From positions 572 to 64,571 of the forward strand of contig JBBTUL010000012.1 in assembly GCA_038063755.1 (NCBI GenBank): a stretch of DNA of 64,000 nucleotides. Reading direction: 5' to 3'. The translations under genes and the position numbers were made by a program. The first letter of the stretch is position 1. The number at the start of each line of letters is the position of its first letter. The DNA comes from Patescibacteria group bacterium (lineage in GTDB: Bacteria; Patescibacteriota; Minisyncoccia; UBA6257; 2-01-FULL-56-20). Of the stretch, positions 35,051 through 63,307 are shown in pieces. Below the pieces are notes generated by a model that saw only the letters and a program-made list of their open reading frames with translations, was not told where the DNA came from and searched no databases.

Positions 35051-35455
35051 ATGACCGAAAGCGGGGAAAAGTACATAAGCCTTAAAGAAGCCGCAAGATT
35101 GTCGGGTTATTCGCCGGACTATGTCGGACAGCTTATCAGAAAAGGAAAGCTCCCCGGAAAACAAATATATTCGAATATTGCCTGGGTGACGACCGAAGAG
35201 GCCATTAAAAAATACATGGAAGGATCGCTTCCCGAAAACGGAGGCGAAGCGGGAGCTCCCTGGCTAGAGCGAAAGGCGGCAATTCTTGAGAAAAAAAAGC
35301 TTTTTCGGCGGGTAACGATTTTACTAAGAGTAATTCTTAGTGCCATGATTTTTTTCGCGATAGTTCTTTTCTATGTATTTACCGCAAGCGTTGAACAGCG
35401 CCTTGAACAGCGCGCACTTCGACAGGCAGAGGTAGGCCAAGAAAAAATGAAATGA
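35051..35455 (+). CDS. helix-turn-helix DNA-binding protein with a C-terminal TM helix (membrane-anchored regulator)
   Basis: ISLKEAARLSGYSPDYVGQLIRKGKLPG is a MerR/excisionase-type HTH. The hydrophobic segment is VTILLRVILSAMIFFAIVLFYVF. Confidence 0.55.
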   Translation: MTESGEKYISLKEAARLSGYSPDYVGQLIRKGKLPGKQIYSNIAWVTTEEAIKKYMEGSLPENGGEAGAPWLERKAAILEKKKLFRRVTILLRVILSAMIFFAIVLFYVFTASVEQRLEQRALRQAEVGQEKMK

Positions 35456-37083
35456 AAAACGAGCATGAGGAAAAGAAGTGTTTCATGCGCGATATTGTTT
35501 TTTATCCCGCGAGCACAGCCCGGCCGAAAAAAGAAAGAAAAGCCGGCGATCTATTTTCGAGATGCGTTGCGATCATGGCAATGTGCTCGATTATCTTTTT
35601 TCCGCTGGCTCCGGTTCGCGGAGAAGAGGCTTCCCCTGATGCGAGTGTCGATGTTTCCGAGGTCATCCAGCCCACAGGCGAAATAAACGAGACAGCAGAG
35701 GACGGCGAAAAAATTTTATCAGAACTTCCTTCGGAGCAAGTAGAACAGATCGAACTTGTTCCGGACGAGAACCCCTTTTCTGAAGAGCAGTCCGTCGAGA
35801 GCTCTTCTGGCGCAGAAAACGCAGTGCCCGAGCCAAAAGCAGAAGAAGTGCTTGTCGAAAACAACGGGGAGACACAGAGCGTCGTCTCTTCCGAAGAAAC
35901 GTCAAGCGAACCCGATCCCCTGATAAACACCGAAGAGAGCGGAGGATCGACGGGGAGTCTCTCAGCAACATCATCATCGTCAGAAGAACCGGCTGTGCCG
36001 CGTGAAGAAGAAAACAGGAGCTCAGCACCGGAGGACGAGAACGAGCCGATCCTTGAAGCTCAAGACGCAAGTACTCCATACGAGGACTTAACTACCGAAG
36101 AACTTTCCGCCAAGCTCAAAGACCAAGAAGCGCGATACCAGGAAGAGCTTGAGCGGAAAAATCGTGTCATCGAAGAGCTTACAGAAAACGCAACCCAAAG
36201 GCCGCGGAGGGAAGCGGAAAAAGAGCTTCAGGCGAGATGTGTCGCGCTTGCGCACGGATACTTTTGTCTTGACGGAGATGGCGCTGCTTCATCCGGAGAA
36301 GTGCTTGCGAGCCCGTCAGATAACGGATTTTTACGCGCCGAGCGTGTTTCCGGTAACTATGAAATATATCTGACGGGAGCGTCTGGAGAAGAGCGTATTA
36401 CTGAAAATGACTACGACGATATTTTTCCGGAACGTGATCGAGGCGGAGCAATGATCGTCTGGCAGGGAAACCCCGGAGGTACGTGGCAGATTTTTGTAAA
36501 AAATGGGCTTGATCCGGTGGAGCAGCTTACCAACACGAACGACTCGAATATGAACCCGCGCGTTTCGAGCGATTTCGTGGTCTGGCAGGGATGGCGCGAC
36601 GGGAATTGGGAAATATTTTTAGCGGAGAAAAAAAACAATATAGAAGATGGCGCGACGAGCACTGTTTCAAAAGAGTCGTGGAGCGTTGAGCGGTTAACCA
36701 CGAATATCACAAATGACATGTTTCCCAGCATCGCACGAGGACTGGTAACGTGGCAGTCATGGAATGGTTCGGGGTGGGAGATTCTTGTGTACGATATTAA
36801 AAATAAAAAAATCGAAAAACTTGAGGGTTCCGGAGTTGCAGAAAGTCCTCGCTTCGCGCTCATTGCCGAGGAGCGAAATACGGACGGAACGTTTCGAACG
36901 GTTGGATATGACCTTGCTTCAGGAAGGAAGCTAGAGCTTCACCTTGATCGTTTGCCGATTACGATACCAGTCGATCCTCCCGCCCCACCGCTTCACGAAC
37001 AGGATGGAGTTTTTCCTGCGCCTTCCGGCGGACATACAGAGAAGAAGGTTGAGGGAGGCGAAGATGGAGCTACACCAGAATGA
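35452..37083 (+). CDS. secreted protein: acidic low-complexity region + PD40/TolB-like beta-propeller repeats
   Basis: Hydrophobic N-region, a long E/S/D-rich linker, then at least 3 repeats of the form ...VWQG.(R)DG.WEIF(L/V). Confidence 0.55.
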   Translation: MKNEHEEKKCFMRDIVFYPASTARPKKERKAGDLFSRCVAIMAMCSIIFFPLAPVRGEEASPDASVDVSEVIQPTGEINETAEDGEKILSELPSEQVEQIELVPDENPFSEEQSVESSSGAENAVPEPKAEEVLVENNGETQSVVSSEETSSEPDPLINTEESGGSTGSLSATSSSSEEPAVPREEENRSSAPEDENEPILEAQDASTPYEDLTTEELSAKLKDQEARYQEELERKNRVIEELTENATQRPRREAEKELQARCVALAHGYFCLDGDGAASSGEVLASPSDNGFLRAERVSGNYEIYLTGASGEERITENDYDDIFPERDRGGAMIVWQGNPGGTWQIFVKNGLDPVEQLTNTNDSNMNPRVSSDFVVWQGWRDGNWEIFLAEKKNNIEDGATSTVSKESWSVERLTTNITNDMFPSIARGLVTWQSWNGSGWEILVYDIKNKKIEKLEGSGVAESPRFALIAEERNTDGTFRTVGYDLASGRKLELHLDRLPITIPVDPPAPPLHEQDGVFPAPSGGHTEKKVEGGEDGATPE

Positions 37084-40000
37084 CAAGCGCGATTCGATTT
37101 TTTGAGAAAAGAAGACAGCGCATCGAGGCGACGCTTGCGATTCTGCTTGCTGCCCTTTCTGCATATACGCTTCTTGTCGGTAACCAATCATTGCACGAAC
37201 TTATCCCTATTCCTCCGAAAGAAGCGAAGGCCGCGCAGGTGACGATTGATACGACCGTTTCGATTACCATCGGAAAGCACATGCTTTCCGGAAAGCAGAC
37301 GGTGTGCACGTCGGACACCGCATGTTATGCATTCTATATTGATGCGACCCCGAACGCGGAAGATATTGCCTTCGTTTCTTCGACAAACGGCGGAGCTTCC
37401 TGGGGGACGCCACATATAGTCGCCGCAGGAACGTGGCTCGGTGTCGTTATTTGGTACGATCGCTGGACTCCGGGAGATACGACCGGAAACACGGTACACA
37501 TGGTTACGTTCGAGTCCACGCTCGACCGGCTTTATTACACAAGCTTCGATACGGTAACAGAGGCGACCACAAGCGTAGTCGATGCCTCCGGAGCGGCCGA
37601 AGGGGCGCTTGCGGCAGGAAACGACCTTGCAATCACCAAGGCAACAAACGGTTATCTTTACCTTGGGACGGTCGACGCGACTGCCCCTACCGCCGGAGCG
37701 AACTTTATCGAAAAATGCCCGGCAAATTGCACGGCAACGACAAGCTGGGTGGCCGCAGGAACAAACCCGTGGACGAATGCGGGGGACAACCTCGACGGGA
37801 ATTTCGATCTTGTGATGATGCCGCTTCCTGCGGGAGATATTATGCTCGTTGCCCGCGATGTGGCGCTTGAGGACATCGAATATCAGATTTACACGAGCTC
37901 CACGAACACTTGGAATGCGAGCTTCACGGACCTCGACACCGGCGCGCAGGACATTACTACGTTTCCCTTTACTATCTCGGGCATTGCGGACACATTCAAC
38001 AACGATCTTTATCTTGCGTATGTGGCGAGCACGAGCGTTACGAACAGAAGCGAGCTTCGCGCATGGCGATATTCGTCCTCCACGTGGGCACAGCTTGCGA
38101 GTCCCTGGCCCGAGGCAACGGATGCTGTTTCCCTCATTAACGACGTATCGATTGGGATGGATTATTCCTCGGGCGATCTTTACGTCGCCTACGTGAGAGA
38201 CCCCACGAACGATGCGACGAACAACGGCAACGTTTACTACTCAAAGTCGACCGACGGAGGGACAACGTGGACCATCGACACGCTTCTTTCGAACGGCACC
38301 GTGGGAGACCTGCGCGGCATTTCAATAAATAACATCTCGAATGAACGTATCTTCGGGGTTTGGTTTAACCCGACACCGGACGACATTTTCGGAAACACGG
38401 CTCAAGACCTTACCCCGCCGACGTTTTCACAGTCCGCATATCGTTGGTTTGAAAACACAAACGCCACTTCCGTTGGCGTGGCGCTTGCCGCACAAGACAC
38501 AGCCACTACGCTTACCACCTCAAGCCAAGTATTTCGACTGCGACTCTCAGTGGATGCAGCAAACAACGGCGGGCGAAGATACTGGGTGAATGCGAAATTG
38601 CAATACGCCACCTCAACGGGCGCATGCGATGTCGGATATTCCGGCGAGACATATATAGACGTGGCAACTTCGTCTGGGCCGATTATTCTTTTCGACAACG
38701 CGCTTCCGCTCGATGGGGCAACCTCGACCGCGACTTCGAGCGATCCCGTTCACGGGGGACATCCTGCAACCGCACAGACCTACGAAGAGGCAAACCCGTT
38801 TACGAATTCAATTTCTCGTGTCGCAAGCGGCACGGACGGCATTTGGGATTTCGCTCTCAAAGACAACAACGCGCCGACAGTAACAACGTATTGTTTTAGA
38901 ATCGTTGACGCGAGCGGATCGCTCTTGGGAGCACCGAGCGTTATCCCACAGGTTACAACCTTTGCGGTTCCGACCTACACACAAAATTACTATCGATGGT
39001 ACGTGGACAACGGCACGACAACACCTTCTGATCCTTGGCCTTCGGGCGCCGTAGATATTGGGGAAAACGCTCCGATCACATATGCACAAGATCCCCCTGC
39101 CTCAGGCGAGCATTTGCGCTTGCGCATGACAAGTCAGATTGGGACAGAAGTGCTTGCAACGACAACGCAAGATTTCAAATTGCAATTCGGTACGCCATCC
39201 GCAACCTGCGGAGACGTCTCTTCATGGAACGATCTTGGCGCGCTGGGGAGCGGGGTGATTTGGCGTGGGTGGAATAGCGCCCCGGCCGACGGCACAGTAC
39301 TCGCTTCGAGCTCTCCGCAGGCGGGCGAGCTTTTGCTTTCAGTCTCGGATAGAGGAGGGACGTATGAAGAGCAAAACGGCACCGGACAAAATCCCTATCG
39401 AGTGAATATCGGGGAAGACGTGGAATACGATTGGTCCATTGAAGACAACGGAGCAACCGCATCGACGACGTATTGTTTCCGCATGACAAAAGAGAACGGA
39501 GCTGAGTTCGGGTCTTATAGTTTTTATCCAACGCTTTCTACGTCAGGATACCGACCGAAGACTCAAAACTGGAGGTGGTACGATGACGAAGCAAGCGAAA
39601 CTCCAACCACCTTTCTAGCCGCCGAAAATACTGCACCGACGAACATTGCGAATCAAAACTCCATAAAGCTGAGAATTACGATCAAAGACACGGCAAACGC
39701 TTCTGGCGTAAACGAGAAGTTTAAGCTTCAATTTTCGGAATATTCCGATTTCTCAGGAAGCGTGCAAGACGTTACTCCTGGTTCAGGTTGTTCGGGAAAT
39801 AGTATTTGGTGTTATACAGATGGCGGCGGACTAGACAACGGAATTATTACTACCAAAGTTCTCTCCGATGCAGATGCCTGCACCGGAGGAGCCGGAAATG
39901 GATGCGGAATGCACAATGAAGTTCCAACATCGACAAGCTCGTTTAGTCCAGCAGCAAACGCTGCAACGGAGTACGAGTTTACCATCAAGCAAGATGGAGC

Positions 40001-40625
40001 AAGGGCAAGCGCGGTATATTTCTTTCGGGTGTATAACGTAACGCGGAATCTTGCGACTCCACTGAACACCTCCGAGATATATCCGAGCCTTACCGTAGAA
40101 GGCGGGTCTCTTACGTTTAGTATTGGGGGCGTTGCAAGCGGAACAATAACAGAAGGGATTACGACGGATACCGAAACAACCGCAAGCACGATTCCTTTTG
40201 GAGTATTAGCGTTTGGAGCGGATAGAAAAGCCGCACACCGCCTTACGATCACCACAAACGCAACCGATGGATATAGGGTTTTCTTGTTTCAAGGACAAGG
40301 GTTTATAAACGAAGACGGGGATGAAATACCCCGCGTTGCAGGGACGAACGCGAGTCCTCTTGCCTGGGGCATCGGCTGTTATACAACCTCGAGCGGGTGT
40401 TATGGGTATCATTCAGGAGACGATGTTCTTTTCGGCGGGTCGACTCGGTTTAGCGCAGACGATACGTATGCGAAGCTCACGACATCCTCCGAGGAGATAG
40501 CGTTCAGCGCGATACCGGGAACGGCAGATACGCATGACGTTATATTCAGAACAAAGGCTTCGGGAAGCCAACCCGGCGGAACATATCAAAGCAGTATCGC
40601 CTATATCGCCGTGACATATTTCTGA
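37080..40625 (+). CDS. giant (1181 aa) Thr/Ser-rich surface protein with BNR/Asp-box repeats and a conserved C-terminal beta module
   Basis: N-terminal TM/signal, then BNR motifs (SSTNGGASWGT, KSTDGGTTWTI). N-terminal domain paralogous to the 51463 protein (AAQVTIDTTV...VIWYDRWTPGDTTGNTVHMVTFES versus AAQVTIDSTV...AIWYDRWTPGNATGTIIHVSTID). The C-terminal ~150 aa are shared with the 43136, 51463 and 58290 proteins. Confidence 0.7.
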   Translation: MTSAIRFFEKRRQRIEATLAILLAALSAYTLLVGNQSLHELIPIPPKEAKAAQVTIDTTVSITIGKHMLSGKQTVCTSDTACYAFYIDATPNAEDIAFVSSTNGGASWGTPHIVAAGTWLGVVIWYDRWTPGDTTGNTVHMVTFESTLDRLYYTSFDTVTEATTSVVDASGAAEGALAAGNDLAITKATNGYLYLGTVDATAPTAGANFIEKCPANCTATTSWVAAGTNPWTNAGDNLDGNFDLVMMPLPAGDIMLVARDVALEDIEYQIYTSSTNTWNASFTDLDTGAQDITTFPFTISGIADTFNNDLYLAYVASTSVTNRSELRAWRYSSSTWAQLASPWPEATDAVSLINDVSIGMDYSSGDLYVAYVRDPTNDATNNGNVYYSKSTDGGTTWTIDTLLSNGTVGDLRGISINNISNERIFGVWFNPTPDDIFGNTAQDLTPPTFSQSAYRWFENTNATSVGVALAAQDTATTLTTSSQVFRLRLSVDAANNGGRRYWVNAKLQYATSTGACDVGYSGETYIDVATSSGPIILFDNALPLDGATSTATSSDPVHGGHPATAQTYEEANPFTNSISRVASGTDGIWDFALKDNNAPTVTTYCFRIVDASGSLLGAPSVIPQVTTFAVPTYTQNYYRWYVDNGTTTPSDPWPSGAVDIGENAPITYAQDPPASGEHLRLRMTSQIGTEVLATTTQDFKLQFGTPSATCGDVSSWNDLGALGSGVIWRGWNSAPADGTVLASSSPQAGELLLSVSDRGGTYEEQNGTGQNPYRVNIGEDVEYDWSIEDNGATASTTYCFRMTKENGAEFGSYSFYPTLSTSGYRPKTQNWRWYDDEASETPTTFLAAENTAPTNIANQNSIKLRITIKDTANASGVNEKFKLQFSEYSDFSGSVQDVTPGSGCSGNSIWCYTDGGGLDNGIITTKVLSDADACTGGAGNGCGMHNEVPTSTSSFSPAANAATEYEFTIKQDGARASAVYFFRVYNVTRNLATPLNTSEIYPSLTVEGGSLTFSIGGVASGTITEGITTDTETTASTIPFGVLAFGADRKAAHRLTITTNATDGYRVFLFQGQGFINEDGDEIPRVAGTNASPLAWGIGCYTTSSGCYGYHSGDDVLFGGSTRFSADDTYAKLTTSSEEIAFSAIPGTADTHDVIFRTKASGSQPGGTYQSSIAYIAVTYF

Positions 40626-40627
40626 AC

Positions 40628-41671
40628 ATGATAAAATTCAAGAACTTTTTCCGCGGAAAAACATTTTTATATATAGTCACCGCTTTTTCTGTCGGAGTTT
40701 TTTACGTTACGCTTCCATTACCCGCGGAAGCGATTATTTCAGTAAGCCGGTTTTTAGAAATGCATCCGGCGGTCGTCGACCTGAAAGGAATGCCGCGTGA
40801 CATTTTAGGGGGAGAATTTCAAATTAGGAATATTGCCGATCATCGCATTGCGGTGTATCCATTCGTTTACGGAGTCGAAGAAGAAAACGGAGTACAGAAG
40901 TTTTTAGATTCATCACTTGCAGACCAAGCGGAGTCGCTTGCGAATTGGATATCGCTCCATCGCGGCGTCATCATGCTTGATCCCGGAGAAGAGAAAAAAG
41001 TGCAATTTAACTTGCAAATCAATTTGCGAGCAGAGCCCGGGTTCTACCACGCAGTTATCGGGGTTGGCGAAGGTGCGACAAGAGATGATGCCGAGCAAGA
41101 TATTTCTCGCGCAGCAACGCTTGCGGTAAATGTTGAAGTGATAAGCGATGTTCGGGTAGACTTTGCTCTCAAGTCATTCCGAGCGACAAAAACATTTCTC
41201 GTGGGATCATCTCCGGCATTCTCGTACCGCGTCCTAAATAACGGAAATCGGCCAGAAGCTCCTCGTGGTGAGCTTCGAATATATAACCGCCGAGGGAAAG
41301 AGATTTCGTTTATCCCAACGAACACTGAGGGAAAGATTGTCTCGCCAGGCGAGGAAGCACCCTTCTCGGTCAATTCGGAAGCCGTTTTCCCGATTGGAAG
41401 ACATAAGGCGTTTCTCGATGTTTCTTACGGAGAAGAGGGCGGAAAACACCTTACCGATACAGCTTTTTTCTGGGTTTTCCCGCTGATTTGGGTGTTTGCG
41501 GTTGGAGTGCTGTTTTTCGCGATTATCATAGCCGCCATTGCTTTACACTATATATATGAGCGACGGCACAGGAAAACGGTCCAGATGCACCCCATGAGGC
41601 CATATGCCCACGACATTATCGACCTTCGCAGGGGCGCGGGGCAAACAAGAGACAAGAACGGAAATGAATAG
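40628..41671 (+). CDS. membrane-anchored surface protein, paralog family A (signal peptide + two beta-sandwich domains with N-x-G-N motif + C-terminal TM)
   Basis: Signal peptide, then ...VLNNGNRPEAPRGELRIYNRRGKEISFI..., then C-terminal TM FFWVFPLIWVFAVGVLFFAIIIAAIAL and a basic tail. Paralogous to the proteins at 41664, 44389 and 60191. Confidence 0.6.
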   Translation: MIKFKNFFRGKTFLYIVTAFSVGVFYVTLPLPAEAIISVSRFLEMHPAVVDLKGMPRDILGGEFQIRNIADHRIAVYPFVYGVEEENGVQKFLDSSLADQAESLANWISLHRGVIMLDPGEEKKVQFNLQINLRAEPGFYHAVIGVGEGATRDDAEQDISRAATLAVNVEVISDVRVDFALKSFRATKTFLVGSSPAFSYRVLNNGNRPEAPRGELRIYNRRGKEISFIPTNTEGKIVSPGEEAPFSVNSEAVFPIGRHKAFLDVSYGEEGGKHLTDTAFFWVFPLIWVFAVGVLFFAIIIAAIALHYIYERRHRKTVQMHPMRPYAHDIIDLRRGAGQTRDKNGNE

Positions 41672-42983
41672 AATCCATCGCGTGCGCAGAGGGACGATTG
41701 CAGGTGTTATTCTTTTTTGCCTAATTACGTTTTCTCCCTTATCGCTTTTCGCCGCGGAAAAAGTTTCCCTCACCATCACCCCGCCGCTTTTTCAACTGAA
41801 CGTAAAACCTGGAGATTTCTGGTCGAGCTCAGTGAGGGTGATAAACGCGAATAACGCGCCACTCACTTTATATGCTCGTGTGTACGGATTTATCGCAGAG
41901 GGAGAAGACGGACACGGAGATTTTATTTCTATTAGCGAGGGTGCGAATGGAGACGACGCGATGCTTGCGCGATGGATTAATCTTCAAGAAAAAGAAATAG
42001 AACTTTCTCCTGGTGCAAGTGGAGAGATTCCATTTACCATTTCGATTCCAAAAAGCGCTCCTCCTGGAGGGCAGTATGCAGCAATCCTTGTTGGAACCGC
42101 TCCGCCGGAGTTTTCATCGGTGGGACCGGCAATGCTTGTCTCTGGATCTGTGTCGTCTCTTCTGTTTGTCCGGATCGATGGAGACGTGCGCGAGGAAGGG
42201 GTGATTAGAGAATTCGTCACCGAGGAAAGTGTTTATCAATCGCCAAGAGCAAATTTTTCTGTTCGCTTTGAAAATCTTGGAAATGTTCATCTGCGTCCGC
42301 AGGGCGATATCACGATCTATAATATGTGGGGAAAAGAACGCGGAAGGATACTGGTTAACCAACAGACAGATTTTGGAAATGTTCTTCCGAAGAGCACGAG
42401 AAAATTCGCCTTCGAATGGATTGGAGAGAGCAACCTCTTTGAAGCGGGAAGGTATCGCGCCGTCGCAACGCTGGCCTACGGCCGCGACGCGCGACAAAAT
42501 GTCTCGCGATCAGTCACTTTTTGGGTTATTCCGACGAAAGAGACCATCGCGGTTTTCGGAAGTCTCATTTTTGGAGTATGGTGCCTTATTCTTCTTATTC
42601 GAAGGTACGTCCGACGCGCACTTAGGCTGGAAATGGTGCGTCGCGGAATGCATGATGGGATAAACGGGCATGATGTTTCTCGTCTGCGTGATGAAAAACC
42701 ATTGTTGCGACCGGAAGTTCTCCTAAGACCGCTTGAGATTGGCATCGTTGATCTTCGAAAAACAAAAGAAGCACTTGAAAAAACAGAAAGCAAAAACAAA
42801 AAACTCATTGCAAGGGGCTTGCTCAGGAAATACGTTCTTGTTCTTGTTTTTATCCCGACAGCTTTATTTTTGATTCTTTGGTTCTTTGTATATTTTAAAG
42901 AGGTTCTCGTGAAAGAGAGAGTGTTCGAGATCAACATACAAAAAGAAAGCTCATCTCTCGCGCAGAGCCGAGCAATAGTCTAG
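41664..42983 (+). CDS. membrane-anchored surface protein, paralog family A
   Basis: RIDGDVREEGVIREF...FENLGNVHLRPQGDITIYNMWGKERGRIL, plus a C-terminal TM and a second TM near the end. An 8-nt overlap with the upstream paralog suggests an operon. Confidence 0.6.
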   Translation: MNRIHRVRRGTIAGVILFCLITFSPLSLFAAEKVSLTITPPLFQLNVKPGDFWSSSVRVINANNAPLTLYARVYGFIAEGEDGHGDFISISEGANGDDAMLARWINLQEKEIELSPGASGEIPFTISIPKSAPPGGQYAAILVGTAPPEFSSVGPAMLVSGSVSSLLFVRIDGDVREEGVIREFVTEESVYQSPRANFSVRFENLGNVHLRPQGDITIYNMWGKERGRILVNQQTDFGNVLPKSTRKFAFEWIGESNLFEAGRYRAVATLAYGRDARQNVSRSVTFWVIPTKETIAVFGSLIFGVWCLILLIRRYVRRALRLEMVRRGMHDGINGHDVSRLRDEKPLLRPEVLLRPLEIGIVDLRKTKEALEKTESKNKKLIARGLLRKYVLVLVFIPTALFLILWFFVYFKEVLVKERVFEINIQKESSSLAQSRAIV

Positions 42984-55635: not shown

Positions 55636-56946
55636 ATGCCAGAACCAATCATCACAGGAAAAGATCTTCGCGTAGTGTACAATCTTGGGAAGTCCAACGA
55701 GTATCTTGCTCTTAAGATCGACGATTTCGAGATATACCCGCAAGAATACATTATTTTATTCGGTCCTTCTGGGTGCGGGAAGTCAACACTGCTTTACTCC
55801 CTTCTTGGGGTTCTTCCCCCGACATCGGGAGAGCTTCTTATCAAAGGTGAGAACCCGTACAAATATTCGGATGCGAAAATGGTTCGTTTCCAGCAGTCGG
55901 TTGTCGGAATCATTTATCAGTCATTTAACCTTATCCCCTCGCTTTCCGTTTTGGACAACGTTGCCTTGCCGAGAATTTTCGCAAATGCACCCAAAGCAGA
56001 ACGCGAACGACAAGGATTCGCACTGCTTCGAAGATTCGGAGTCGAAGCACAGGCGCGCAAGCTTCCAACGTCTCTCTCGGGAGGACAAATGCAGCGTATC
56101 GCCGTTGCCCGTTCGCTCGTAAACGATCCGGAAATACTTTTGGGCGATGAGCCGGTAGGAAACCTTGACAGCGTTTCGACGAAGCAGGTCATGGACACGT
56201 TGGACGAAATCAATATGCGAGATAGAAAAACAATCATTCTCGTTACGCACGATGCGAAGCATTTGCCATATGCGCACCGCGTTTACCACATGAGAGACGG
56301 AAAGATTGTCCGAGAGGTCATTAATCCGGAAAAGCCGCAGATAAAAAAAGTTGAGAAGGGAAAAACGATTTTAACCGAGATCGAAAAGCTTTCACGCATA
56401 TTCCCATATGCAACTCCAGAAGAGCTTCGCGTGAAGAGCATTGTAAACTTTCTGACACAAGAACTTACCTTCGATCAGCTGCAGCGACTGGAGGTTCTTG
56501 TGGAATCTTTTTTGAACGGAAGACTCGAAGAAGCGACATTTTTATGGAGCCTTCGCGCTCCATTCGACAAGGGAGGCGCCGGGGTTCCGGAACGCACCGC
56601 AGAAGAAATGGTTCACCGAGTATCGAAAATCGTCACGGATGCAAGGAATATAAGCAGATTCAGAAGGCGATTCGAAGAGCGTGTGAAGTCCTCGAAACAG
56701 CAGGAAAGAATCATTGATTTAAGAAAAAGCCTACTTGATGCTTACGAAGGGCAAGTAACACTCGAAGAGCTCGGTCGCCTTGAGGGGGCTCTCCAGAGGC
56801 GCGTATCGGGCCTTATGACCCTCGAGGAATTTAGGGAGGAGCTCCACAAGCCGCTTGAGCAGGGCGGGATTGGATTTCACACCTCGACCGCGCATAGATT
56901 TTCTCAACATCTTGAGAAGTTGATTGCGCAAGGAACGCATTTATAA
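55636..56946 (+). CDS. ABC transporter ATP-binding protein (MacB/LolD-type) with about 200-aa helical C-terminal extension
   Basis: Walker A GPSGCGKSTLL, signature LSGGQMQRIAVARSL, Walker B ILLGDEP, and a long extra C-terminal domain of unknown function. Start taken at the first ATG after the upstream gene. Confidence 0.8.
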   Translation: MPEPIITGKDLRVVYNLGKSNEYLALKIDDFEIYPQEYIILFGPSGCGKSTLLYSLLGVLPPTSGELLIKGENPYKYSDAKMVRFQQSVVGIIYQSFNLIPSLSVLDNVALPRIFANAPKAERERQGFALLRRFGVEAQARKLPTSLSGGQMQRIAVARSLVNDPEILLGDEPVGNLDSVSTKQVMDTLDEINMRDRKTIILVTHDAKHLPYAHRVYHMRDGKIVREVINPEKPQIKKVEKGKTILTEIEKLSRIFPYATPEELRVKSIVNFLTQELTFDQLQRLEVLVESFLNGRLEEATFLWSLRAPFDKGGAGVPERTAEEMVHRVSKIVTDARNISRFRRRFEERVKSSKQQERIIDLRKSLLDAYEGQVTLEELGRLEGALQRRVSGLMTLEEFREELHKPLEQGGIGFHTSTAHRFSQHLEKLIAQGTHL

Positions 56947-56947: not shown

Positions 56948-58156
56948 ATGAGACTAGACGATACCATAAAACTTTCCACGCGCATGTTTAAGACGAATCC
57001 GGCACGTACGTGGCTCACCATCCTCGGTATGGGCGTGGGAACTTCCGCGGTTGTCCTTCTGGTCGGACTTGGATTCGGACTGCAAGGCATTCTTCTCGAG
57101 CAGATTGTTTTTGGAGATACGCTCTTAAGCTTAAACGTTACAAATCCCGGATCTCGCGTAGTGGTTCTTGATCAGTCGCGACTCGAAGAGTTTTTGAAAA
57201 TAGAAAACGTAGAGGACGTCTCGCCGCTCGGAAGCGTTTCGGCGCTCATCACATTCAACAACCTAACCGGAAACATAACGCTTCAAGGAAGCGGACCATC
57301 GTATTTTCGCTACACCGGGACGCTTGCTGACAAAGGAGGAATTTTTAAAAAAGGGGAGGAGGCGGAGGACCGAAACAAAGTTCTTCTTTCTAAAGGAGCG
57401 CTGAAACTTTTTGGAATCGAGAACACAGAAGACGCATTGGGTAAGCCCGTTAGGTTTCGCGCGTTTGTAAAAAATCCGACGAATGGCACGACGCAAGAGG
57501 TTTCGATTGAAAAGGAGTATACCGTGAAGGGAGTAACGAACGATGCAGCTTCGATAATCGCCATGCTCACCCTCGAGGAATTTTCTTCGCAGGTTCCGAT
57601 TTCTTCCTACGAGCGCGTTCAGGTCAAGGTGACGAATAGCAACTTCCTCACTCAAGTACAAGACGCCATTGTGGGGAAAGGGTTCGTGGTAACGGCGCTT
57701 TCAAAAACGGTCGAACAAGCGAATAAAATTTTTAAAGGAGTACAGGCCGTGCTCGCATGTTTCGGAGGAATAGCACTTCTGGTTTCTGCAATCGGAATGT
57801 TTAATACGATGACCGTCACCCTGCTTGAGAGAACGAACGAAATCGGCATTATGCGAACCATTGGGGCATCACCGCGAGACATCAAGATACTGTTTCTTTC
57901 CGAATCGGTTGTCGTGGGATTTTTGGGCGGGGTAATCGGAATACTGATCGGAGTAATAATAGGCGTCGGATTAAACCTGATTTTAAACGCCGTGGCGAGT
58001 CATTTCGGAGGAGTTGCTGTCCGTCTTTTCAGATATCCATGGCTCTTTCTCATTTTTATTGCCACATTTTCCGGCGTAGTGGGGTTCCTGACCGGACTTT
58101 TTCCTGCAAAAAGAGCTTCGGGGCTGAACCCGCTCGACGCAATTCGATATAAGTAG
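56948..58156 (+). CDS. ABC transporter permease, FtsX/MacB-like (N-terminal TM, large extracytoplasmic domain, 3 C-terminal TM)
   Basis: MacB-PCD-like periplasmic region followed by an FtsX domain ending in the GLNPLDAIRYK motif. Starts 2 nt after the ATPase stop. Confidence 0.75.
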   Translation: MRLDDTIKLSTRMFKTNPARTWLTILGMGVGTSAVVLLVGLGFGLQGILLEQIVFGDTLLSLNVTNPGSRVVVLDQSRLEEFLKIENVEDVSPLGSVSALITFNNLTGNITLQGSGPSYFRYTGTLADKGGIFKKGEEAEDRNKVLLSKGALKLFGIENTEDALGKPVRFRAFVKNPTNGTTQEVSIEKEYTVKGVTNDAASIIAMLTLEEFSSQVPISSYERVQVKVTNSNFLTQVQDAIVGKGFVVTALSKTVEQANKIFKGVQAVLACFGGIALLVSAIGMFNTMTVTLLERTNEIGIMRTIGASPRDIKILFLSESVVVGFLGGVIGILIGVIIGVGLNLILNAVASHFGGVAVRLFRYPWLFLIFIATFSGVVGFLTGLFPAKRASGLNPLDAIRYK

Positions 58157-58230: not shown

Positions 58231-58242
58231 TGTGGATAACTT
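58231..58242. promoter_or_regulatory. second copy of the TGTGGATAACTT motif, upstream of the 58290 gene
   Basis: Exact 12/12 identity with 43019-43030. It lies about 50 nt upstream of the start codon. Confidence 0.3.
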
Positions 58243-58289: not shown

Positions 58290-60110
58290 ATGAACGAAAG
58301 AAAAGCAGGAAAAATAACGATTTCAGTTGTGCTTGTCAGCGCAATTATATTCGTTTCGGCAATGGCCATTCGGTTTTCTCCGTTCGTTCCGGTTCATTTA
58401 AGTAGCGTAAATGCGGATACCGCAACAACGAGCGTGACGGTAGTAAACACTCCGCCGAATTGGAGCGTGGATGCGCAGGAATATGTTGTGTCATCGACGA
58501 GTACGCCGACAAATGCAAGCTCCACGGTAACCTGGGTCGGTACGGCCATCGACGACAACAGCGAAAACTATTATTTATTGCTTTGCAAGACGACCTCAAC
58601 CCCAACCGCAAACGCGAGCGCCGCGCCTACTTGTGCCGGCGGGGCATCGAATCAATGGGGAGTCTCTCCTTCAACAATAAGTAGCATTCAGGCTACCACC
58701 ACCTATATTGCCAAGGTGACAGATGTTGAGGCAAACGACTGGTATGCCTGGATATGTGATGGAAACCCCGCAAATCCCCGTTGTAATACCACATACAAAA
58801 CAGGAACCGGCAATACCGCCTCCCCCTTTGTGGTGAACCATCGGCCGGCATTTACCTCTTTTGTTGACGATTCGCCCAAAAACCCAGGCGACACGGTTAC
58901 TTGGACTTCAGTATCAAGCGATGCCGATGTTTATGGCGGACAAGATCTAGTAACGCTCTATGTGTGCAAGGCAAGTGATTTTAATGGAACAGCATGTGGT
59001 GCAGGCGGAACATATTGCACTTCGAGTGCAACATCTTCCAATCCAACCTGCAACTTCGCGCTTGAAAATCCGAAGCAAGACACGAACTACTCCGCGTATG
59101 GTTATGTAATCGATAACCATAATTTCGCGGCGCTGGGCGGATCACATGGATCCGATTCGTCGATTACTATTTCAAACGTTGCGCCAAGCATCGCGTCTTC
59201 GAGCATACAACTTCTTGACACCGATGAAGCAGGAGGGCTTACGCTTACGAGTCCTTCGGCACAAACTAGCGGTTTTAAAGTTAAGCTTACCGTGACAGAC
59301 AACAATAGCTGTCAAAACGCATCCGCAGGACAGGAGATCGCCTCAGCGCTTGTTAATGTGTATCGATCGGGTATTGGACAGGCAGGCTGTCAGACGAGTG
59401 GAAATTATAACGCAAATAATTGTTATGCGGGAGCAGTCAGTACTTCAACCTGGAATGTTTCCTGCACGCAAGATGGAGGATCGTGTTCTGGCGGATCTGA
59501 TTCAACGGCGACCTGGACGTGTACTTTCCCACTCTGGTTTCTCGCAGATCCGACCGACGGCTCTTCGCTTACCGACTCAACATGGTTTGCCGAAAACTGG
59601 CTTCCTTCAGTTCGTGTGACGGACGACAATACTGCAACGAGCACACTCACCGAAGCAAGCTCTGGAAACGAGGTGTTGAGCTTTATGGCGTATACGCTCA
59701 ATACTTCGCAAATCAGCTATGGCTCTCTTGAACCAGGACAGAGGAACGATCCCGTCTCTCAGACAACACTTTTTTCGGCTACCGGAAACGTTGGGCTTGA
59801 CCAAACGCTCTATGGAAACGATATGTGTACAACATATCCAAGCTGCAATCCTGTAAGCACCACATCAACCATTCCCAAGGGGAAACAGCACTATGCGACC
59901 TCAGGTCTTGCCTACGCCTCGGCCATAGCGCTTATAGTGGATCCGGGAGCAGAGCTTGAGCTAAATGTCCTAAAAACGACATCAACGAGCACTCCAGCAA
60001 ATGCAAACACCTTCTGGGGGATCGAAATTCCGTCAAGCATTACTCTCGCAGGAGACTATACCGGCCAAAACACGTTTATTGGGATAAAAGGGGAAGCGCA
60101 AAGCTGGTAG
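58290..60110 (+). CDS. secreted Thr/Ser/Cys-rich surface protein carrying the shared C-terminal beta module
   Basis: Signal peptide. The C-terminal ~170 aa (ISYGSLEPGQRNDPVSQTTLFSATGNVGLDQTLYGNDM...DYTGQNTFIGIKGEAQSW) align with the C-termini of the 51463 and 37080 proteins. Confidence 0.6.
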   Translation: MNERKAGKITISVVLVSAIIFVSAMAIRFSPFVPVHLSSVNADTATTSVTVVNTPPNWSVDAQEYVVSSTSTPTNASSTVTWVGTAIDDNSENYYLLLCKTTSTPTANASAAPTCAGGASNQWGVSPSTISSIQATTTYIAKVTDVEANDWYAWICDGNPANPRCNTTYKTGTGNTASPFVVNHRPAFTSFVDDSPKNPGDTVTWTSVSSDADVYGGQDLVTLYVCKASDFNGTACGAGGTYCTSSATSSNPTCNFALENPKQDTNYSAYGYVIDNHNFAALGGSHGSDSSITISNVAPSIASSSIQLLDTDEAGGLTLTSPSAQTSGFKVKLTVTDNNSCQNASAGQEIASALVNVYRSGIGQAGCQTSGNYNANNCYAGAVSTSTWNVSCTQDGGSCSGGSDSTATWTCTFPLWFLADPTDGSSLTDSTWFAENWLPSVRVTDDNTATSTLTEASSGNEVLSFMAYTLNTSQISYGSLEPGQRNDPVSQTTLFSATGNVGLDQTLYGNDMCTTYPSCNPVSTTSTIPKGKQHYATSGLAYASAIALIVDPGAELELNVLKTTSTSTPANANTFWGIEIPSSITLAGDYTGQNTFIGIKGEAQSW

Positions 60111-60190: not shown

Positions 60191-61138
60191 ATGACACGAA
60201 CGAAGATTGAATGTACCCGGATTATTTTTCTGTTTGTTTTCGGAGTTATTTTTGCAACGAACACCGCGCTTGCCGGTTTTGGAATTACTCCACCATACGT
60301 GAAGAACGACGGTCTTACCAAAAGCTCACACTACGAACAAAAAATAGTTTTAGTCCGCGGTGATCCCGTGGAAGATCTTCGCGCAAAAATTACCGTGAAC
60401 GTCCCCGGTGCGGACGAGTGGATATCTGTTGATCGCGGACTCGAATTCATGCTTCCCAAAGGAGAGCAGCAAACACCGATCGTTGTAAGCGTTGATGTCC
60501 CTAAAAAAGTAAAATTCGGAGAGTACAAAGGAAACATCCGTGTTGTCATTTCTCCGCTTGGCGGGCCGCAGGCAGGAACCGTTGGGGTCGTGCTCGGTGC
60601 GCAGATCGACGTTGTTTTGAATATTATCGACAAGCAAGTTGCAACATTCCGCGTATGGACCGTAAACATTTCCGATCTCGAAGAAGGAAGGAAAGTTGCA
60701 TGGATGGATTTCCCCGGGAAAATTCGTTTTACTATGCAGATCGAAAACTCCGGAAATGTTGCGATCGCGCCGAGCAGGGTTGAATTTGAAATCCGCGATA
60801 GCCAAGGAAACGTTATCGAAAAGACCCAAAATACTGGTTCAATAAAAAAGCTGCAGCCGTTTGAGGTCAAGCAGGTTATTGCCGAGCTCCCGACGTGGGT
60901 GAAGGCTGGAAACTATACTGTTGGGTACAAAATTTACAACAAAGAGGAGGTGGTCCATTCCGGCGATCTTTCGCTCAGCATCCTTCCGAGAGGTTCGCTT
61001 CCGGGTTATTTGGGATACGGAGTCCTAGGTCTTTCCGTTGGCGATCTCGGAGTTCTCATCCTCATAATAGGAGCGGCGCTTCTCACCCTTGGGGTGGGTA
61101 TCCGCTGGGTCATTCTCCATGTCCGAATTAGGCAATAA
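60191..61138 (+). CDS. membrane-anchored surface protein, paralog family A (fourth copy)
   Basis: Signal peptide, ...IENSGNVAIAPSRVEFEIRDSQGNVIEK..., and a C-terminal TM (LGVLILIIGAALLTLGVGI) with a basic tail. Confidence 0.55.
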   Translation: MTRTKIECTRIIFLFVFGVIFATNTALAGFGITPPYVKNDGLTKSSHYEQKIVLVRGDPVEDLRAKITVNVPGADEWISVDRGLEFMLPKGEQQTPIVVSVDVPKKVKFGEYKGNIRVVISPLGGPQAGTVGVVLGAQIDVVLNIIDKQVATFRVWTVNISDLEEGRKVAWMDFPGKIRFTMQIENSGNVAIAPSRVEFEIRDSQGNVIEKTQNTGSIKKLQPFEVKQVIAELPTWVKAGNYTVGYKIYNKEEVVHSGDLSLSILPRGSLPGYLGYGVLGLSVGDLGVLILIIGAALLTLGVGIRWVILHVRIRQ

Positions 61139-62288
61139 ACGCCGAAAACAAAGGGTTCTCGAGCGGCCTTGTTTATGTATTCGAGTCGCTGTTTTAACCT
61201 TTACGGCCATTTTGCTTGCCGGAGTTCCGCCGACGAGCTTTGCGACGGATCCGATTGTTGCAACGACGACCGTGACGGTAAGTATTTGCGGAAATGGAGC
61301 TATTGAGTCCGGGGAGGCTTGCGACGACGGCATAAACCCAGGAGGGTATGCGACATCGACCGCGGGGCGAGAGTGTGCGCCTGGATGTACCTCGTTCGGC
61401 CCATATTGCGGCGATCAAGTTCTTCAAGTGCTCTATATGGAACAGTGCGATGACGGAAACAACACATCGGGAGACAGATGTTCGGATGTGTGTGTCATAG
61501 AGAATATTTCTGCGATGGGAGGATCGAGCGGGGGAGCGGGCCCTTTTCCTGGCGGATCGTTCAATCAACCCCAAGCGACAAAGGTGGTGATACAGGGCAA
61601 GGCATACCCCGATGCAAACGTGAGCATCTTGAAGGATGGAACCGCCATCGGAGTTGTTCGCGCAAATGCTCAGGCTGATTTCTACTTCGCCTCGCCGGAA
61701 ATATCCCCAGGAGTGACTACGTTCGGATTTTGGGCAGAAGACAACAAGGGACTTCGATCAATTGCTCTTACGACAACGCTTACGGTTACCGCGAACGCAA
61801 TAACTACCATTTCGGGAGCATTTCTTCCTCCGACAATAAACATCGACAAGCGGAGTGTTAAAAAAGGCGAGGTATTAAATATTTCCGGACAATCCGCTCC
61901 ACTCGTGAGCGTTGTGGCGCACGTAAACTCAGAAACAAAAATAACCGAGGAAGTAAAGACAAACACTCAAGGTGAGTGGAAGGTGCCATTCGACACGGCG
62001 CCGCTTTCCGAAGAAGAGTTTCATAGCGCGAAAGCACAATTCAGGACCGTAAGCGAAGGGAATATAATTTCGAGCGCATTTAGCCAAACACTAAGCTTCT
62101 ACGTTGGCGTTAAGGGGGAGGGGAGGGCGTTTGTTGCGGACTTAAACCAAGACAAGAAGGTAAATCTTGTCGACTTTTCGATCCTCCTGTTTTATTGGGG
62201 GACGGCAACGCCGCTTGCGGATTTAAACCAAGACAAGAAGGTAAATCTCACCGACGTGTCGATATTATTGTTTTACTGGACTGGATAA
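61119..62288 (+). CDS. secreted protein with Cys-rich CGxG...CDDGN repeats and C-terminal tandem dockerin-type repeats
   Basis: CGNGAIESGEACDDGINPG and CGDQVLQVLYMEQCDDGNNTSGDRCSDVC are a Myxococcus-type Cys-rich repeat pattern. The C-terminus has two repeats of ADLNQDKKVNL(V/T)D(F/V)SILLFYW. Paralogous to the 45885 protein. Confidence 0.55.
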   Translation: MSELGNKRRKQRVLERPCLCIRVAVLTFTAILLAGVPPTSFATDPIVATTTVTVSICGNGAIESGEACDDGINPGGYATSTAGRECAPGCTSFGPYCGDQVLQVLYMEQCDDGNNTSGDRCSDVCVIENISAMGGSSGGAGPFPGGSFNQPQATKVVIQGKAYPDANVSILKDGTAIGVVRANAQADFYFASPEISPGVTTFGFWAEDNKGLRSIALTTTLTVTANAITTISGAFLPPTINIDKRSVKKGEVLNISGQSAPLVSVVAHVNSETKITEEVKTNTQGEWKVPFDTAPLSEEEFHSAKAQFRTVSEGNIISSAFSQTLSFYVGVKGEGRAFVADLNQDKKVNLVDFSILLFYWGTATPLADLNQDKKVNLTDVSILLFYWTG

Positions 62289-62326
62289 GGACGAATTGAG
62301 CTTTTCTTCATATTTAATGTGTTAAT

Positions 62327-63307
62327 ATGAACAATATACTTATGAGAAGTTCATTCTACGGTCTTCTTGTCGGCTTCCTCGTCCTACTTGCGGCGTCTCC
62401 TGCCGCGTATGCAGCAAAGCTTTACCTTTCTCCTGCGGATGGAGTTTTTGCGCAAGGGGAAGCATTTAAGGTGCAGATTCGGGTTGATAACGAAAAAGAA
62501 TGCGTGAATGCGGCACAGGTAAATCTTTCATACGACAAATCATTGCTCGAGGTTCTCGATGTTTCTCGAGGCGATTCGATATTTACCTTGTGGGTGAGCG
62601 ACCCGTTTATCAATCCGAAGTTTGGAACCATATCTTTTTCCGGAGGGATCCCTGGCGGTTACTGTGGACGAGTTTCCGGTGATCCAAGTCTTACGAACAC
62701 GATCGCAACGGTGGTGCTTCGATTCGCTTCTTTGCCCGATGGAATAGGGGCTTCTCCGTCGGCAGCGGTTGGTTTTCTCGGGGGGACCGAAGTTTTGTTA
62801 AACGATGGACTAGGGACGCCGGCAAAGCTGTCTCTCGAGGGGGCATCATTTACAACAAAGAAGGGAGACGGCGCTTCTCGAAATCAGTGGATCGACGAAA
62901 TCAAGAAAGACAAAGTTCCGCCAGAACCATTTTCGGTAGAAGTACACCAAGACGAAGCGCTTTTCGGGGGAGGCCACTTTATAGTTTTCTCAACCCTTGA
63001 TAAGCAAAGCGGGATCGATCATTACGAAGTGATAGAGTCCGATGCCCAGGGGTTTGATCAGGGAGGGTTCAGAAAAGCAAAATGGCGCCGTGTTACCAGC
63101 CCCTATCTTTTGAAAGATCAGGAGGTGAGAAGTTTAATTAAAGTTCGGGCGCTTGATAAGGCTGGGAATGAAAGAATAGGAGAATTTGTTCCAGAAAACG
63201 TCCGTCAGGCACCATTCAAGACAAAATCATTCTTCTGGACGACAGCGGCCCTCGTGATAAGCGCACTTGCCGCGTTCTTCCGCATATTCATTTTAAAGAA
63301 GCTCTAA
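62327..63307 (+). CDS. membrane-anchored protein with N-terminal cohesin-like domain (second scaffold paralog)
   Basis: Signal peptide. AFKVQIRVDNEKECVNAAQVNLSYDKSLLEVLDVS...ATVVLRFASLPDG is a cohesin-like signature. Shares the SGIDHYEV...RALDKAGN module and has a C-terminal TM (FFWTTAALVISALAAFF). Confidence 0.55.
   Translation: MNNILMRSSFYGLLVGFLVLLAASPAAYAAKLYLSPADGVFAQGEAFKVQIRVDNEKECVNAAQVNLSYDKSLLEVLDVSRGDSIFTLWVSDPFINPKFGTISFSGGIPGGYCGRVSGDPSLTNTIATVVLRFASLPDGIGASPSAAVGFLGGTEVLLNDGLGTPAKLSLEGASFTTKKGDGASRNQWIDEIKKDKVPPEPFSVEVHQDEALFGGGHFIVFSTLDKQSGIDHYEVIESDAQGFDQGGFRKAKWRRVTSPYLLKDQEVRSLIKVRALDKAGNERIGEFVPENVRQAPFKTKSFFWTTAALVISALAAFFRIFILKKL

Follow-up and report, generated by a model that had tools for sequence, protein, structure and literature searches.

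Here we report that a run of 20 genes (g1 to g20; Table 1) at positions 35051–63307 of a 64-kb window, by which we mean the whole stretch of DNA that was analysed, probably encodes a surface fibre system of the Pam type, which would be usher-less and chaperone-assisted, belong to a monoderm cell of the candidate phyla radiation (CPR) and be laid out in two gene cassettes. The locus codes for pilin-like subunits (g6 and g3) together with four membrane-anchored proteins resembling PapD and WxLIP (g4, g5, g7 and g18), and is therefore read as a chaperone-assisted fibre system. Polymerisation, anchoring, regulation and host binding are steps that we infer; host attachment is plausible, judging only from the lectin-like and propeller passenger domains of the encoded proteins. 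Paceibacteria are the largest class of the CPR, whose members are thought to be host-attached. Attachment machinery is almost unknown outside the Saccharimonadia; for Paceibacteria, the locus is a concrete candidate for what builds their surface fibres, and one that is widely conserved.

An earlier note on this DNA had described about 20 consecutive plus-strand genes with almost exclusively secreted or membrane-anchored products, possibly from a CPR-type organism, and all three points hold. The open reading frames (ORFs) are co-directional, with short gaps or overlaps (ORF listing and translation), and agree with the NCBI gene calls on GCA_964357965.1 (CAYHMX010000005.1); part of the locus is present as an identical copy in a Hainich 0.1-µm groundwater assembly. 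The run stops at g20, beyond which a P-type ATPase gene lies on the - strand. A Kyte-Doolittle scan found a hydrophobic N-terminal segment, transmembrane (TM) helices or both in 18 of the 20 products, those without signal peptide or TM segment being the Hsp20 protein (g10) and the ATPase of an ATP-binding cassette (ABC) system (g15), and plausible cleavage sites of the A-x-A type were read by eye in the sequences. The ultra-small groundwater bacterium from which the window comes is assigned from the sequence to the Paceibacteria/Parcubacteria lineage of the CPR, because the annotations of g6 and g7 relatives read Paceibacterota, Parcubacteria, Lloyd-, Sung-, Kaiser- or Azambacteria, Minisyncoccia or 'Patescibacteria group'. 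Some third-party annotation (TPA) records of related loci carry the label 'uncultured Candidatus Saccharibacteria'; since these loci cluster with records that bear Paceibacteria names, we regard that label as unreliable.

Pilin-like subunits and chaperone-like proteins

Pam pili were described in Ca. Mycosynbacter amalyticus (Saccharimonadia) in a preprint (Troman et al. 2026; bioRxiv 10.64898/2026.03.03.709456) that is also the source of the profile NF058581 (CPR_Pam_pilin_C). Their subunits PamA and PamB were found by cryo-electron microscopy (cryo-EM) to be two-domain pilins that polymerise by placing the strand of the inter-domain linker into the open immunoglobulin (Ig)-like C-domain of a neighbour; conservation is highest in the linker and the C-domain, and the cysteines are paired. 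The Pam chaperones are PapD/FimC-like with a C-terminal TM helix, an usher is absent, and an RbmA-like membrane anchor, PamR, has been proposed (10.64898/2026.03.03.709456).

The same pilin architecture was found in g6, with a signal peptide, a beta-sandwich N-terminal domain (NTD), a linker strand, an open Ig-like C-terminal domain (CTD) and paired cysteines. The AlphaFold2 (AF2) model, built from a 40-sequence alignment (predicted local distance difference test, pLDDT, 90), consists of a signal helix, a beta domain at residues 42–179, an isolated strand at 193–199 and a second beta domain at 231–372. Conservation is 0.68 in the linker, 0.64 in the CTD and 0.49 in the NTD, and C109 and C134 are invariant in the family. 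At least 1327 scored homologs were recovered, the best 120 of them 48–100% identical to g6, and at least 220 species-representative genomes encode a relative; no g6 homolog carries a Pfam domain or an informative name.

NF058581 matches g6 with an E value of 1.8e-4 (21.6 bits, model positions 3–148 of 148) and the isolated g3 CTD with 8.2e-6 (26 bits, positions 2–148 of 148), and at E <= 0.01 it matches 32 of 37 g3-type C-domains, at best with 7.3e-11. The CTDs of g6 and g3 align with each other at an hhalign probability of 99.8% (E 4.5e-30). Judged by these profile comparisons, the C-domain of g6 and g3, here called type 1, is distantly homologous to that of the Pam pilins, and it is classed as such rather than as a family member because every NF058581 score lies under the curated cut-off of 55 bits. 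The N-terminal propeller of g3 has weak matches to BNR_2 and BNR_4 and one to a PL42 lyase (E 0.004).

Directly after the predicted signal-peptide cleavage site, the mature N-termini of g3 and g13 share the strand-like sequence AAQVTID[TS]TV, which may be a second kind of donor strand; the underlying DNA forms a 59-nt repeat, 76% identical between 37200–37258 and 51553–51611. Distant clusters retrieved from other lineages with the C-domain profile contain one to three pilin-like genes with a type-1 C-domain adjoining WxLIP-like chaperone genes (L089, 7775–15809; L090, 9073–13017; L091, 7767–12029). Their neighbours include WhiB, cytochrome oxidase or rpoBC genes, and these clusters may be Pam operons proper.

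The WxL (Csc) clusters of Firmicutes encode WxL proteins and WxLIP, the latter with the order DUF916-DUF3324-TM (PMC10599100, PMC1534035; PDB 9i1y, 9i25); WxLIP was described for Firmicutes in 2023, with a predicted strand-insertion contact to WxL (PMC10599100). In the AF2 model of g7 (pLDDT 88) two beta-sandwiches are followed by a TM helix. Its top Foldseek matches are the Enterococcus faecium WxLIP structures 9i1y and 9i25, the latter bound to a WxL protein, at 9e-13, followed by CfaA, CsuC, CupB2, FimC, Caf1M, DraB and PapD at 1e-9 to 1e-7. At the sequence level, too, the profile of the g7 family recovers EfmWxLIP1 (E 1.5e-5), and PF06030 (DUF916) is present on many g7 homologs, the window proteins themselves being under the Pfam gathering score. 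By hhalign, g4 matches the g7 family with a probability of 100% (E 4.5e-50) and g5 matches g7 with an E value of 1.1e-84; g5 also has a weak WxLIP_PGBD match (E 0.0031). The C-terminal TM helix, at residues 286–304 in both g4 and g18, is kept in 44 of 48 g4 homologs and in 58 of 61 g7 homologs. These results show that g4, g5, g7 and g18 combine the two-domain chaperone fold of the WxLIP/PapD/FimC class with a C-terminal membrane helix, so that the locus encodes both PapD/FimC-like chaperones with a C-terminal TM helix, as a Pam operon does, and at least one WxLIP (DUF916-DUF3324-TM), as a WxL cluster does, the latter by Foldseek, by profile and by PF06030 on homologs.

Two conserved cassettes, their candidate anchors and putative control sites

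Gene order was compared by searching the ORFs of 80 non-redundant related loci with g1 to g20; contig ends cut many of these loci, and all adjacency counts are lower bounds. Neighbouring pairs were recovered as g3-g4 in 38 loci, g4-g5 in 46, g5-g6 in 51, g6-g7 in 61, g7-g8 in 52, g8-g9 in 47, g9-g10 in 23 and g10-g11 in 22, and the order g11-g12-g13 in six to seven. Genes g1 to g13 form cassette A, with a core, g3-g4-g5-g6-g7-g8-g9(-Hsp20-g11), that dozens of Paceibacteria species have in the same order. Genes g14 to g20 form cassette B, whose order recurs in five species, in loci arranged as g14-g15-g16-g17-g18-g19-(g6-like)-g20 and then two g11-like genes, a g2-like and a g13-like gene. Each cassette is found alone in other genomes. 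In the window B follows A directly, as it also does in another genome (L092/L093), where a DUF2341/LamG protein and not a propeller occupies the g13 position. In the cassette-B loci L072, L074, L075, L078 and L085 a g6-like gene belonging to the cassette stands between those for the dockerin and cohesin proteins; in the window this gene is absent from cassette B, and g17 instead has a copy of the g6 control region.

Of the 'one super-cluster' proposed in the earlier note, the conserved run of genes stands, and the unity does not: the locus is two separately conserved cassettes side by side. It is not a chance assembly, because many species-level genomes share the gene order and because 46 of 59 loci have the 9-mer core of a motif upstream of their g6 homolog. 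The synteny comparison in related genomes thus favours the earlier view of a dedicated cell-surface assembly locus over that of a random collection. Its remark that several components are paralogous within the locus is extended to six paralog sets by BLASTP and hhalign: g3 and g13 (BLASTP, 3.9e-105), the C-termini of g13 and g17 (BLASTP, 2e-34), the C-terminus of g3 and g6 (hhalign, 3.4e-25), g4, g5 and g7 (hhalign probability 100%), g9 and g19 (4.5e-55, spanning the C-terminal 250 aa) and g11 and g20 (8e-34). A more distant paralog of the chaperone-like set is g18, with hhalign probabilities of 96.7% against g7 and 97.9% against g4.

The earlier note had also named cohesin/dockerin pairs, a MacB-type exporter and a shared motif, and all of these are confirmed. 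The signal peptide and N-domain of g9, up to the first part of the linker, are common with g6 (g6 27–204 against g9 30–229, hhalign probability 99.7%, E 3e-25); FN3, Big_13 (above its gathering score) and dockerin domains follow. The pilin N-domain is present and the C-domain absent, and g9 would presumably be unable to take a further subunit. Dockerin_1 scores 25.8 bits in g9 and 25.9 bits in g19 (gathering score 22.9), and Cohesin 24.6 bits in g11 and 29.5 bits in g20 (gathering score 24.1), so that all four matches are only just over their gathering scores; the two modules lie on separate proteins, which would be putative binding partners. Of 50 g9 homologs, 45 keep the F-hand motif of the dockerin, and the F-hand repeats are duplicated. 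The Cys-rich repeats of g19 match DUF4215 (4.9e-9) and myxo_disulf_rpt (1.8e-13).

The presumed partner g11 carries Big_13 (1.7e-10) and a C-terminal TM helix that was found in 29 of 29 homologs; in the g11 homolog of locus L004 the Cohesin match is unmarked. Its cytoplasmic tail is well conserved (KTKAVFEALREEV..., window 49600–49942). The g10 gene for a signal-less Hsp20 protein is fixed between g9 and g11 in 22–23 loci, its stop overlapping the g11 start, and this fixed gene together with the conserved tail suggests a cytoplasmic partner for the anchor. The corresponding protein of cassette B, g20, has its TM helix at residues 305–323. A further anchor candidate is g8, which follows g7 in 52 loci; across its family the mature protein begins with a conserved, strand-like stretch (VGVSVGVxPNPYNTL), to which a coiled coil and, in 51 of 52 homologs, a C-terminal TM helix are added. 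No protein of the PamR type (N-terminal strand, two FnIII domains, C-terminal TM helix) was recognised in the locus; g8, and g9 with g11, are candidates of analogous logic.

The C-domain shared by g13 and g17 (hhalign 99.8%) is of another kind, here called type 2, for which neither Pfam nor NCBIfam has a model. Its family comprises at least 1118 representative clusters (E <= 1e-3) and always occupies the extreme C-terminus of proteins of 113–3739 aa, whose N-terminal passengers include LamG, FN3, RCC1 and discoidin domains; a faint DUF4402 trace was seen (E 0.046). The domain is possibly part of a fibre subunit or possibly a display module. The domain, at 53401–54093 and 59418–60110 in the window, has four conserved cysteines and the motifs ADPTD, YGxLxPG, WGIxxP and GxYxGxNT.

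By their domains, g15 and g16 are a bona fide MacB-type pair, with an ATPase and a 4-TM permease of the FtsX type that has the MacB periplasmic core. In g15, ABC_tran matches with 2.6e-28, LolD with 2.4e-51 and MacB with 2e-44, the last two below their equivalog cut-offs; in g16, MacB_PCD matches with 2.3e-17, FtsX with 1e-17 and MacB with 6e-25 over the full length. The locus contains no membrane-fusion protein or TolC partner of this pair. FtsEX, LolCDE and MacB act in mechanotransmission outside the membrane.

The motif is a 12-mer, TGTGGATAACTT, with exactly two copies in the 64 kb, at 43019 (before g6) and at 58231 (before g17), and the 30-nt stretches around the two copies share 80% identity. 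The core of the motif, TGTGGATAA/TTATCCACA, is the textbook DnaA-box consensus. The 9-mer TTATCCACA is perfect at 43019–43027 and 58231–58239, within an extended consensus (A)GTTATCCACA, and a box with one mismatch, TTATGCACA, lies at 34938, 113 nt before g1. Upstream of g6 homologs the 9-mer stands in either orientation, often in two or more copies; related loci totalling 1.29 Mb contain 88 of them against an expectation of about 10, and of the 88, 67 precede g6 homologs and 7 precede g1 homologs. Boxes upstream of g17 homologs were not found in the other cassette-B loci. A replication origin at the boxes was rejected, there being only one or two boxes at a site that tracks g6 across genomes, as was an origin in the window, where the cumulative GC skew rises steadily with no origin signal. 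The DnaA-box site is predicted to be an operator of the major-subunit gene, the binder being either DnaA, as a transcription factor, or g1.

Hairpins with a minimum free energy (MFE) <= -20 kcal/mol follow 67% of 61 g6 homologs and 16% of neighbouring genes, a pattern that fits production of g6 in large excess over its neighbours. No promoter is claimed, because the sites found in a sigma-70 promoter scan were no commoner than in shuffles.

Alternative readings and known systems

Read as a Pam-type fibre system, the locus would work as follows. Subunits would cross the membrane via Sec, and the open C-terminal domain of g6 and g3 would be capped by the membrane-tethered chaperones. Polymerisation would proceed by donor-strand exchange, the linker strand of one subunit filling the C-domain groove of the preceding one, and g3 would supply large propeller, Ig or lectin-like binding heads, as possibly would g13 and g17 via their type-2 C-domain. 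The fibre might be closed and held at the membrane in two ways, by g8 with its strand-like N-terminus, coiled coil and TM helix, in a PamR-like logic, or by the dockerin of g9 on the cohesin of g11. The DnaA-box sites would set the expression of the major subunit. In cassette B, g15 and g16 might deliver ATP-driven mechanical work outside the membrane to partners, by analogy with related transporters; this is the least supported step.

A number of observations weigh against this reading. Only 7 of 40 g6-family members match NF058581 at E <= 0.01, and no score, those of g6 and g3 included, reaches the curated cut-off given above. Fold searches with g6 returned generic Ig-like structures only (YcnI/YweA, TasA-like TLP, Gram-positive pilins and cohesins), from a library that lacks the Pam structures 25PZ and 25QA. 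The g6 sequence is unusually well conserved for an exposed pilin and would fit a lattice or sheath too. No significant relation of the type-2 CTD to the Pam domain was seen, NF058581 matching 0 of 73 members in one set and 1 of 9 in another, the latter with an E value of 0.18 (g13), and the hhalign comparison of type 2 with type 1 or the Pam domain was not significant. In the g9 linker only the VxV part is kept, the SVDTxFTFTI stretch being gone, and in many genomes cassette A lacks a cohesin gene in the surrounding 10 kb.

Since WxLIP is the best match of the chaperone-like proteins, the main rival is a non-filamentous, wall-bound adhesin complex resembling those of WxL clusters, which we consider unlikely. 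It follows the proposal for the WxL clusters of Enterococcus and Lactobacillus: each WxLIP-like protein would hold one surface protein without any polymer, g4, g5, g7 and g18 inserting a strand into the C-domain of the 'small' protein g6 or the 'large' proteins g3, g13 and g17. The best structural and sequence matches of g7, which are WxLIP itself, speak for such a complex, as do PF06030 on many homologs, the gene logic of small protein, large protein and WxLIP (PMC10599100) and the type-2 C-domain, which behaves like a generic C-terminal display module and ends over 1000 proteins of varied make-up. Against it, no Pfam WxL match was obtained for the C-domains of g6, g3, g13 and g17 even at E <= 10; the type-1 C-domain has as its relative a pilin domain seen polymerising by cryo-EM, the conserved linker strand and the expression architecture of g6 suit a dominant polymer subunit, and three chaperone paralogs occur in a single cassette. 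A true WxL cluster, for which at least two adjacent WxL-domain proteins are required, was rejected, none being found at E <= 10.

An S-layer or sheath appears less probable still: g6 would form a 2-D lattice, tied down by the cohesin-dockerin pairs g9/g11 and g19/g20, with the large proteins as spikes. The very high conservation of g6 across Paceibacteria, its strong expression signals and the g6 N-domain of g9, which could co-assemble into a lattice, would suit this arrangement, and Luef and colleagues reportedly saw a distinct surface layer on CPR cells by cryo-EM in 2015. Yet the C-domain has its homolog in a filament subunit, chaperones of the PapD/WxLIP type that are dedicated to a system mark strand-complemented fibres and not S-layers, and no SLH or known S-layer domain was found in the locus beyond a trace of SlpA_N (E 1.8). 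Most improbable of all is a cellulosome-like display in which the cohesin-dockerin pairs would hold polysaccharide-degrading BNR/PL42-like propellers for feeding. Cohesin and dockerin domains are present and g3 has its weak BNR and PL42 lyase-like matches, but these propeller matches are far under threshold, the dockerins sit on the non-enzymatic Ig/FN3 proteins g9 and g19 and not on the propeller proteins, each anchor has one cohesin, and Pfam domain scans found no glycoside hydrolase (GH), carbohydrate-binding module (CBM) or scaffoldin. Two further candidates were rejected: a sortase pilus, as no LPXTG-like motif lies near any C-terminus and no sortase domain is encoded in the locus, and a chaperone-usher pilus, as the 20 proteins give no Usher or Fimbrial Pfam match and share the chaperone fold alone.

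With a Pam-type fibre as the preferred reading, the closest comparison is with the Pam operon (10.64898/2026.03.03.709456). Both belong to CPR lineages and encode Sec-secreted two-domain pilins, with several pilin paralogs per operon, that have a beta-sandwich NTD, a conserved linker strand, an open Ig-like CTD, paired cysteines and a like pattern of conservation (g6); both have PapD/FimC-like TM chaperones and giant fibre-like proteins nearby and lack an usher or trans-envelope machine. The locus differs in belonging to Paceibacteria, a class unmentioned in the Pam paper, in its NF058581 scores of 21–26 bits against a cut-off of 55, and in having three plus one chaperones where Pam has two. 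An RbmA-like PamR was not recognised, and the candidates for its place are g8 and a pilin-NTD-dockerin protein with a membrane cohesin; the fixed Hsp20, the MacB-type second cassette with its unmodelled C-terminal domain and the DnaA-box site are further differences, and the ATP-synthase neighbourhood of Pam is missing.

The WxL clusters share with the locus the WxLIP counterparts of g4, g5, g7 and g18 (fold, domain order, C-terminal TM helix and detectable sequence similarity) and the logic of a small surface protein, large proteins with a common C-domain behind variable binding domains, and a membrane-anchored partner. In contrast to them, the locus has no detectable WxL domain and no LPXTG CscD-like protein, its C-domain is pilin-like, and it has cohesin-dockerin and ABC parts, which WxL clusters lack. 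The chaperone-usher pili of Gram-negative bacteria (Pap, Fim, CFA/I, Csu, Caf1) have the two-domain Ig-like chaperone and, presumably, donor-strand complementation and exchange in common with the locus, in which there is no usher or outer membrane, the chaperones are membrane-tethered, and the pilin has two domains with an internal instead of an N-terminal donor strand. The anchoring scaffoldins of the cellulosome (OlpB and SdbA of Clostridium thermocellum) likewise combine a dockerin of two F-hands with a cell-bound cohesin partner encoded adjacently; here the anchor is a TM helix and not SLH, each protein has one cohesin, and the cargo is pilin-like or of Ig repeats and not an enzyme. With the type VII transporters MacB, LolCDE and FtsEX, g15 and g16 share the ATPase, the 4-TM FtsX permease and the extracytoplasmic MacB core, and they differ in lacking a membrane-fusion protein or TolC, in the ATPase C-terminal extension of about 200 aa and in their place in the locus, flanked by an FN3 protein and by genes of the fibre type.

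The statement in the earlier note that no described system combines these parts stands in part. The core resembles the Pam operon (10.64898/2026.03.03.709456) and the WxL/WxLIP clusters (PMC10599100), so that its principle was known before, from Pam in another CPR class in 2026, as was WxLIP in Firmicutes. The Pam paper is silent on the cohesin-dockerin, MacB, Hsp20 and DnaA-box parts, and a literature search on Parcubacteria or CPR with dockerin or cohesin, or on a DnaA box with a pilin, found nothing relevant; the Paceibacteria family, the cohesin-dockerin pair, Hsp20, the DnaA box, the MacB cassette and the type-2 family are thus in neither the Pam paper nor the literature found.

A wider joint reading is more tentative, and we put it forward as possible though doubtful: Paceibacteria would share a Pam-related fibre that (i) is held to the cell by the cohesin-dockerin joint of g9 and g11, accompanied by the g11 tail and Hsp20, that (ii) has its major-subunit gene switched by DnaA boxes, and (iii) whose chaperones are homologous to the WxLIP of Firmicutes, Pam and WxL being two branches of one monoderm superfamily; (iv) a second, MacB-linked cassette, B, would couple mechanotransmission by a MacB-type ABC system to the display of proteins with the type-2 domain. 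Switching by DnaA boxes, if true, would tie fibre production to the replication state, and the site would be among the few cis-elements conserved across species that have been proposed for this group. The link between Pam chaperones and WxLIP suggests a common monoderm form of chaperone-assisted fibre assembly, and the locus suggests that cohesin-dockerin pairs may act as fibre anchors rather than enzyme scaffolds.

Coordinates and remaining features

The positions of all genes and sites of the locus are listed in Table 1.

Table 1. Genes and control sites of the putative fibre locus (positions in the window)
Feature	Position	Strand	Description
g1	35051..35455	+	Small protein; HTH_17 (excisionase/MerR-like), single TM helix at the C-terminus; candidate regulator of the locus
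g2	35485..37083 (ORF opens 35452)	+	Membrane-anchored acidic protein with C-terminal beta-propeller
g3	37080..40625	+	Secreted, 1181 aa; BNR/PL42-like propeller, beta repeats, linker strand, type-1 (Pam-like) CTD; candidate adhesin-bearing fibre subunit
g4	40628..41671	+	Chaperone-like; signal peptide, two beta-sandwich domains, C-terminal TM helix
g5	41664..42983 (ORF opens 41604)	+	Chaperone-like; C-terminal TM helix and extra cytoplasmic/TM tail
g6 control region	43019..43084	.	Perfect DnaA-box 9-mer TGTGGATAA at 43019-43027; inverted partial copy AAGTTATCCAT at 43073-43084
g6	43136..44260	+	Major pilin-like subunit; signal peptide, NTD 42-179, linker ~183-199, type-1 CTD ~217-374
Hairpin 3' of g6	44290..44319	+	Strong, intrinsic-terminator-like; 13-bp stem, 8 GC pairs, T-rich tail
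g7	44389..45480	+	Chaperone-like; signal peptide, beta-sandwiches 35-168 and 176-281, TM helix from 284
g8	45485..45877	+	Bitopic, 130 aa; coiled coil, C-terminal TM helix; candidate fibre terminator/anchor
g9	45885..47609	+	Pilin NTD without CTD, FN3-like domain, Big_13, C-terminal dockerin; candidate fibre-anchor adaptor
g10	47652..48158	+	Hsp20/alpha-crystallin without signal peptide (Pfam HSP20, 4e-11)
g11	48155..49942	+	Signal peptide, cohesin, Ig-like (Big_13) domain, TM helix, cytoplasmic tail of ~100 aa; candidate membrane anchor of g9
g12	49971..51410	+	Membrane-anchored; low-complexity acidic stalk, C-terminal domain
g13	51463..54093	+	First ~610 aa (propeller and repeat modules) paralogous to g3; type-2 C-terminal domain
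g14	54126..55625	+	Secreted; four FN3-type domains; opens cassette B
g15	55636..56946 (start uncertain; ORF opens 55453)	+	MacB/LolD-type ABC ATPase with helical C-terminal extension of ~200 aa
g16	56948..58156	+	MacB-type permease; 4 TM helices, MacB periplasmic core domain between TM1 and TM2
Second DnaA-box motif TGTGGATAACTT	58231..58242	.	59 nt before g17
g17	58290..60110	+	Cys-rich, secreted; Ig-like modules, type-2 C-terminal domain
g18	60191..61138	+	Shorter chaperone-like protein, C-terminal TM helix (cassette B)
g19	61119..62288	+	Cys-rich DUF4215 repeats, Ig-like modules, dockerin, no pilin NTD
g20	62327..63307	+	Signal peptide, cohesin, Ig-like module, C-terminal TM helix; cassette-B anchor

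The HTH_17 match of g1 (E 2.9e-5) is below the Pfam gathering score, its TM helix spans residues 88–106, and g1-like genes precede g3-like genes in five other loci. The propeller of g2 was recognised from beta_prop_Msarc repeats (NCBIfam, E 4e-14) and a TolB-like match (7.7e-7), both below cut-off; its TM helix is at residues 34–52, and g2-like genes sit before g13-like genes in cassette-B loci. In g12, with a TM helix at residues 34–52, no Pfam or NCBIfam match was found. In g14, Pur_ac_phosph_N (2e-21) and fn3 (2.2e-16) were matched, and the order g14-g15 was found in five loci and in L092/L093.

Rfam and tRNA scans of the window returned a tRNA-Arg at 23594 only, outside the locus. A PilB/GspE-type ATPase (T2SSE, E 4e-119) is encoded at 8537–10225, 25 kb upstream of the locus, and the same genome region therefore also holds part of a type IV pilus system. 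The GC content falls to 0.39–0.41 at 2001–6000, against about 0.49 elsewhere; this low-GC stretch spans the ORFs at 2474–3865 and 3993–5111 and may be foreign DNA.

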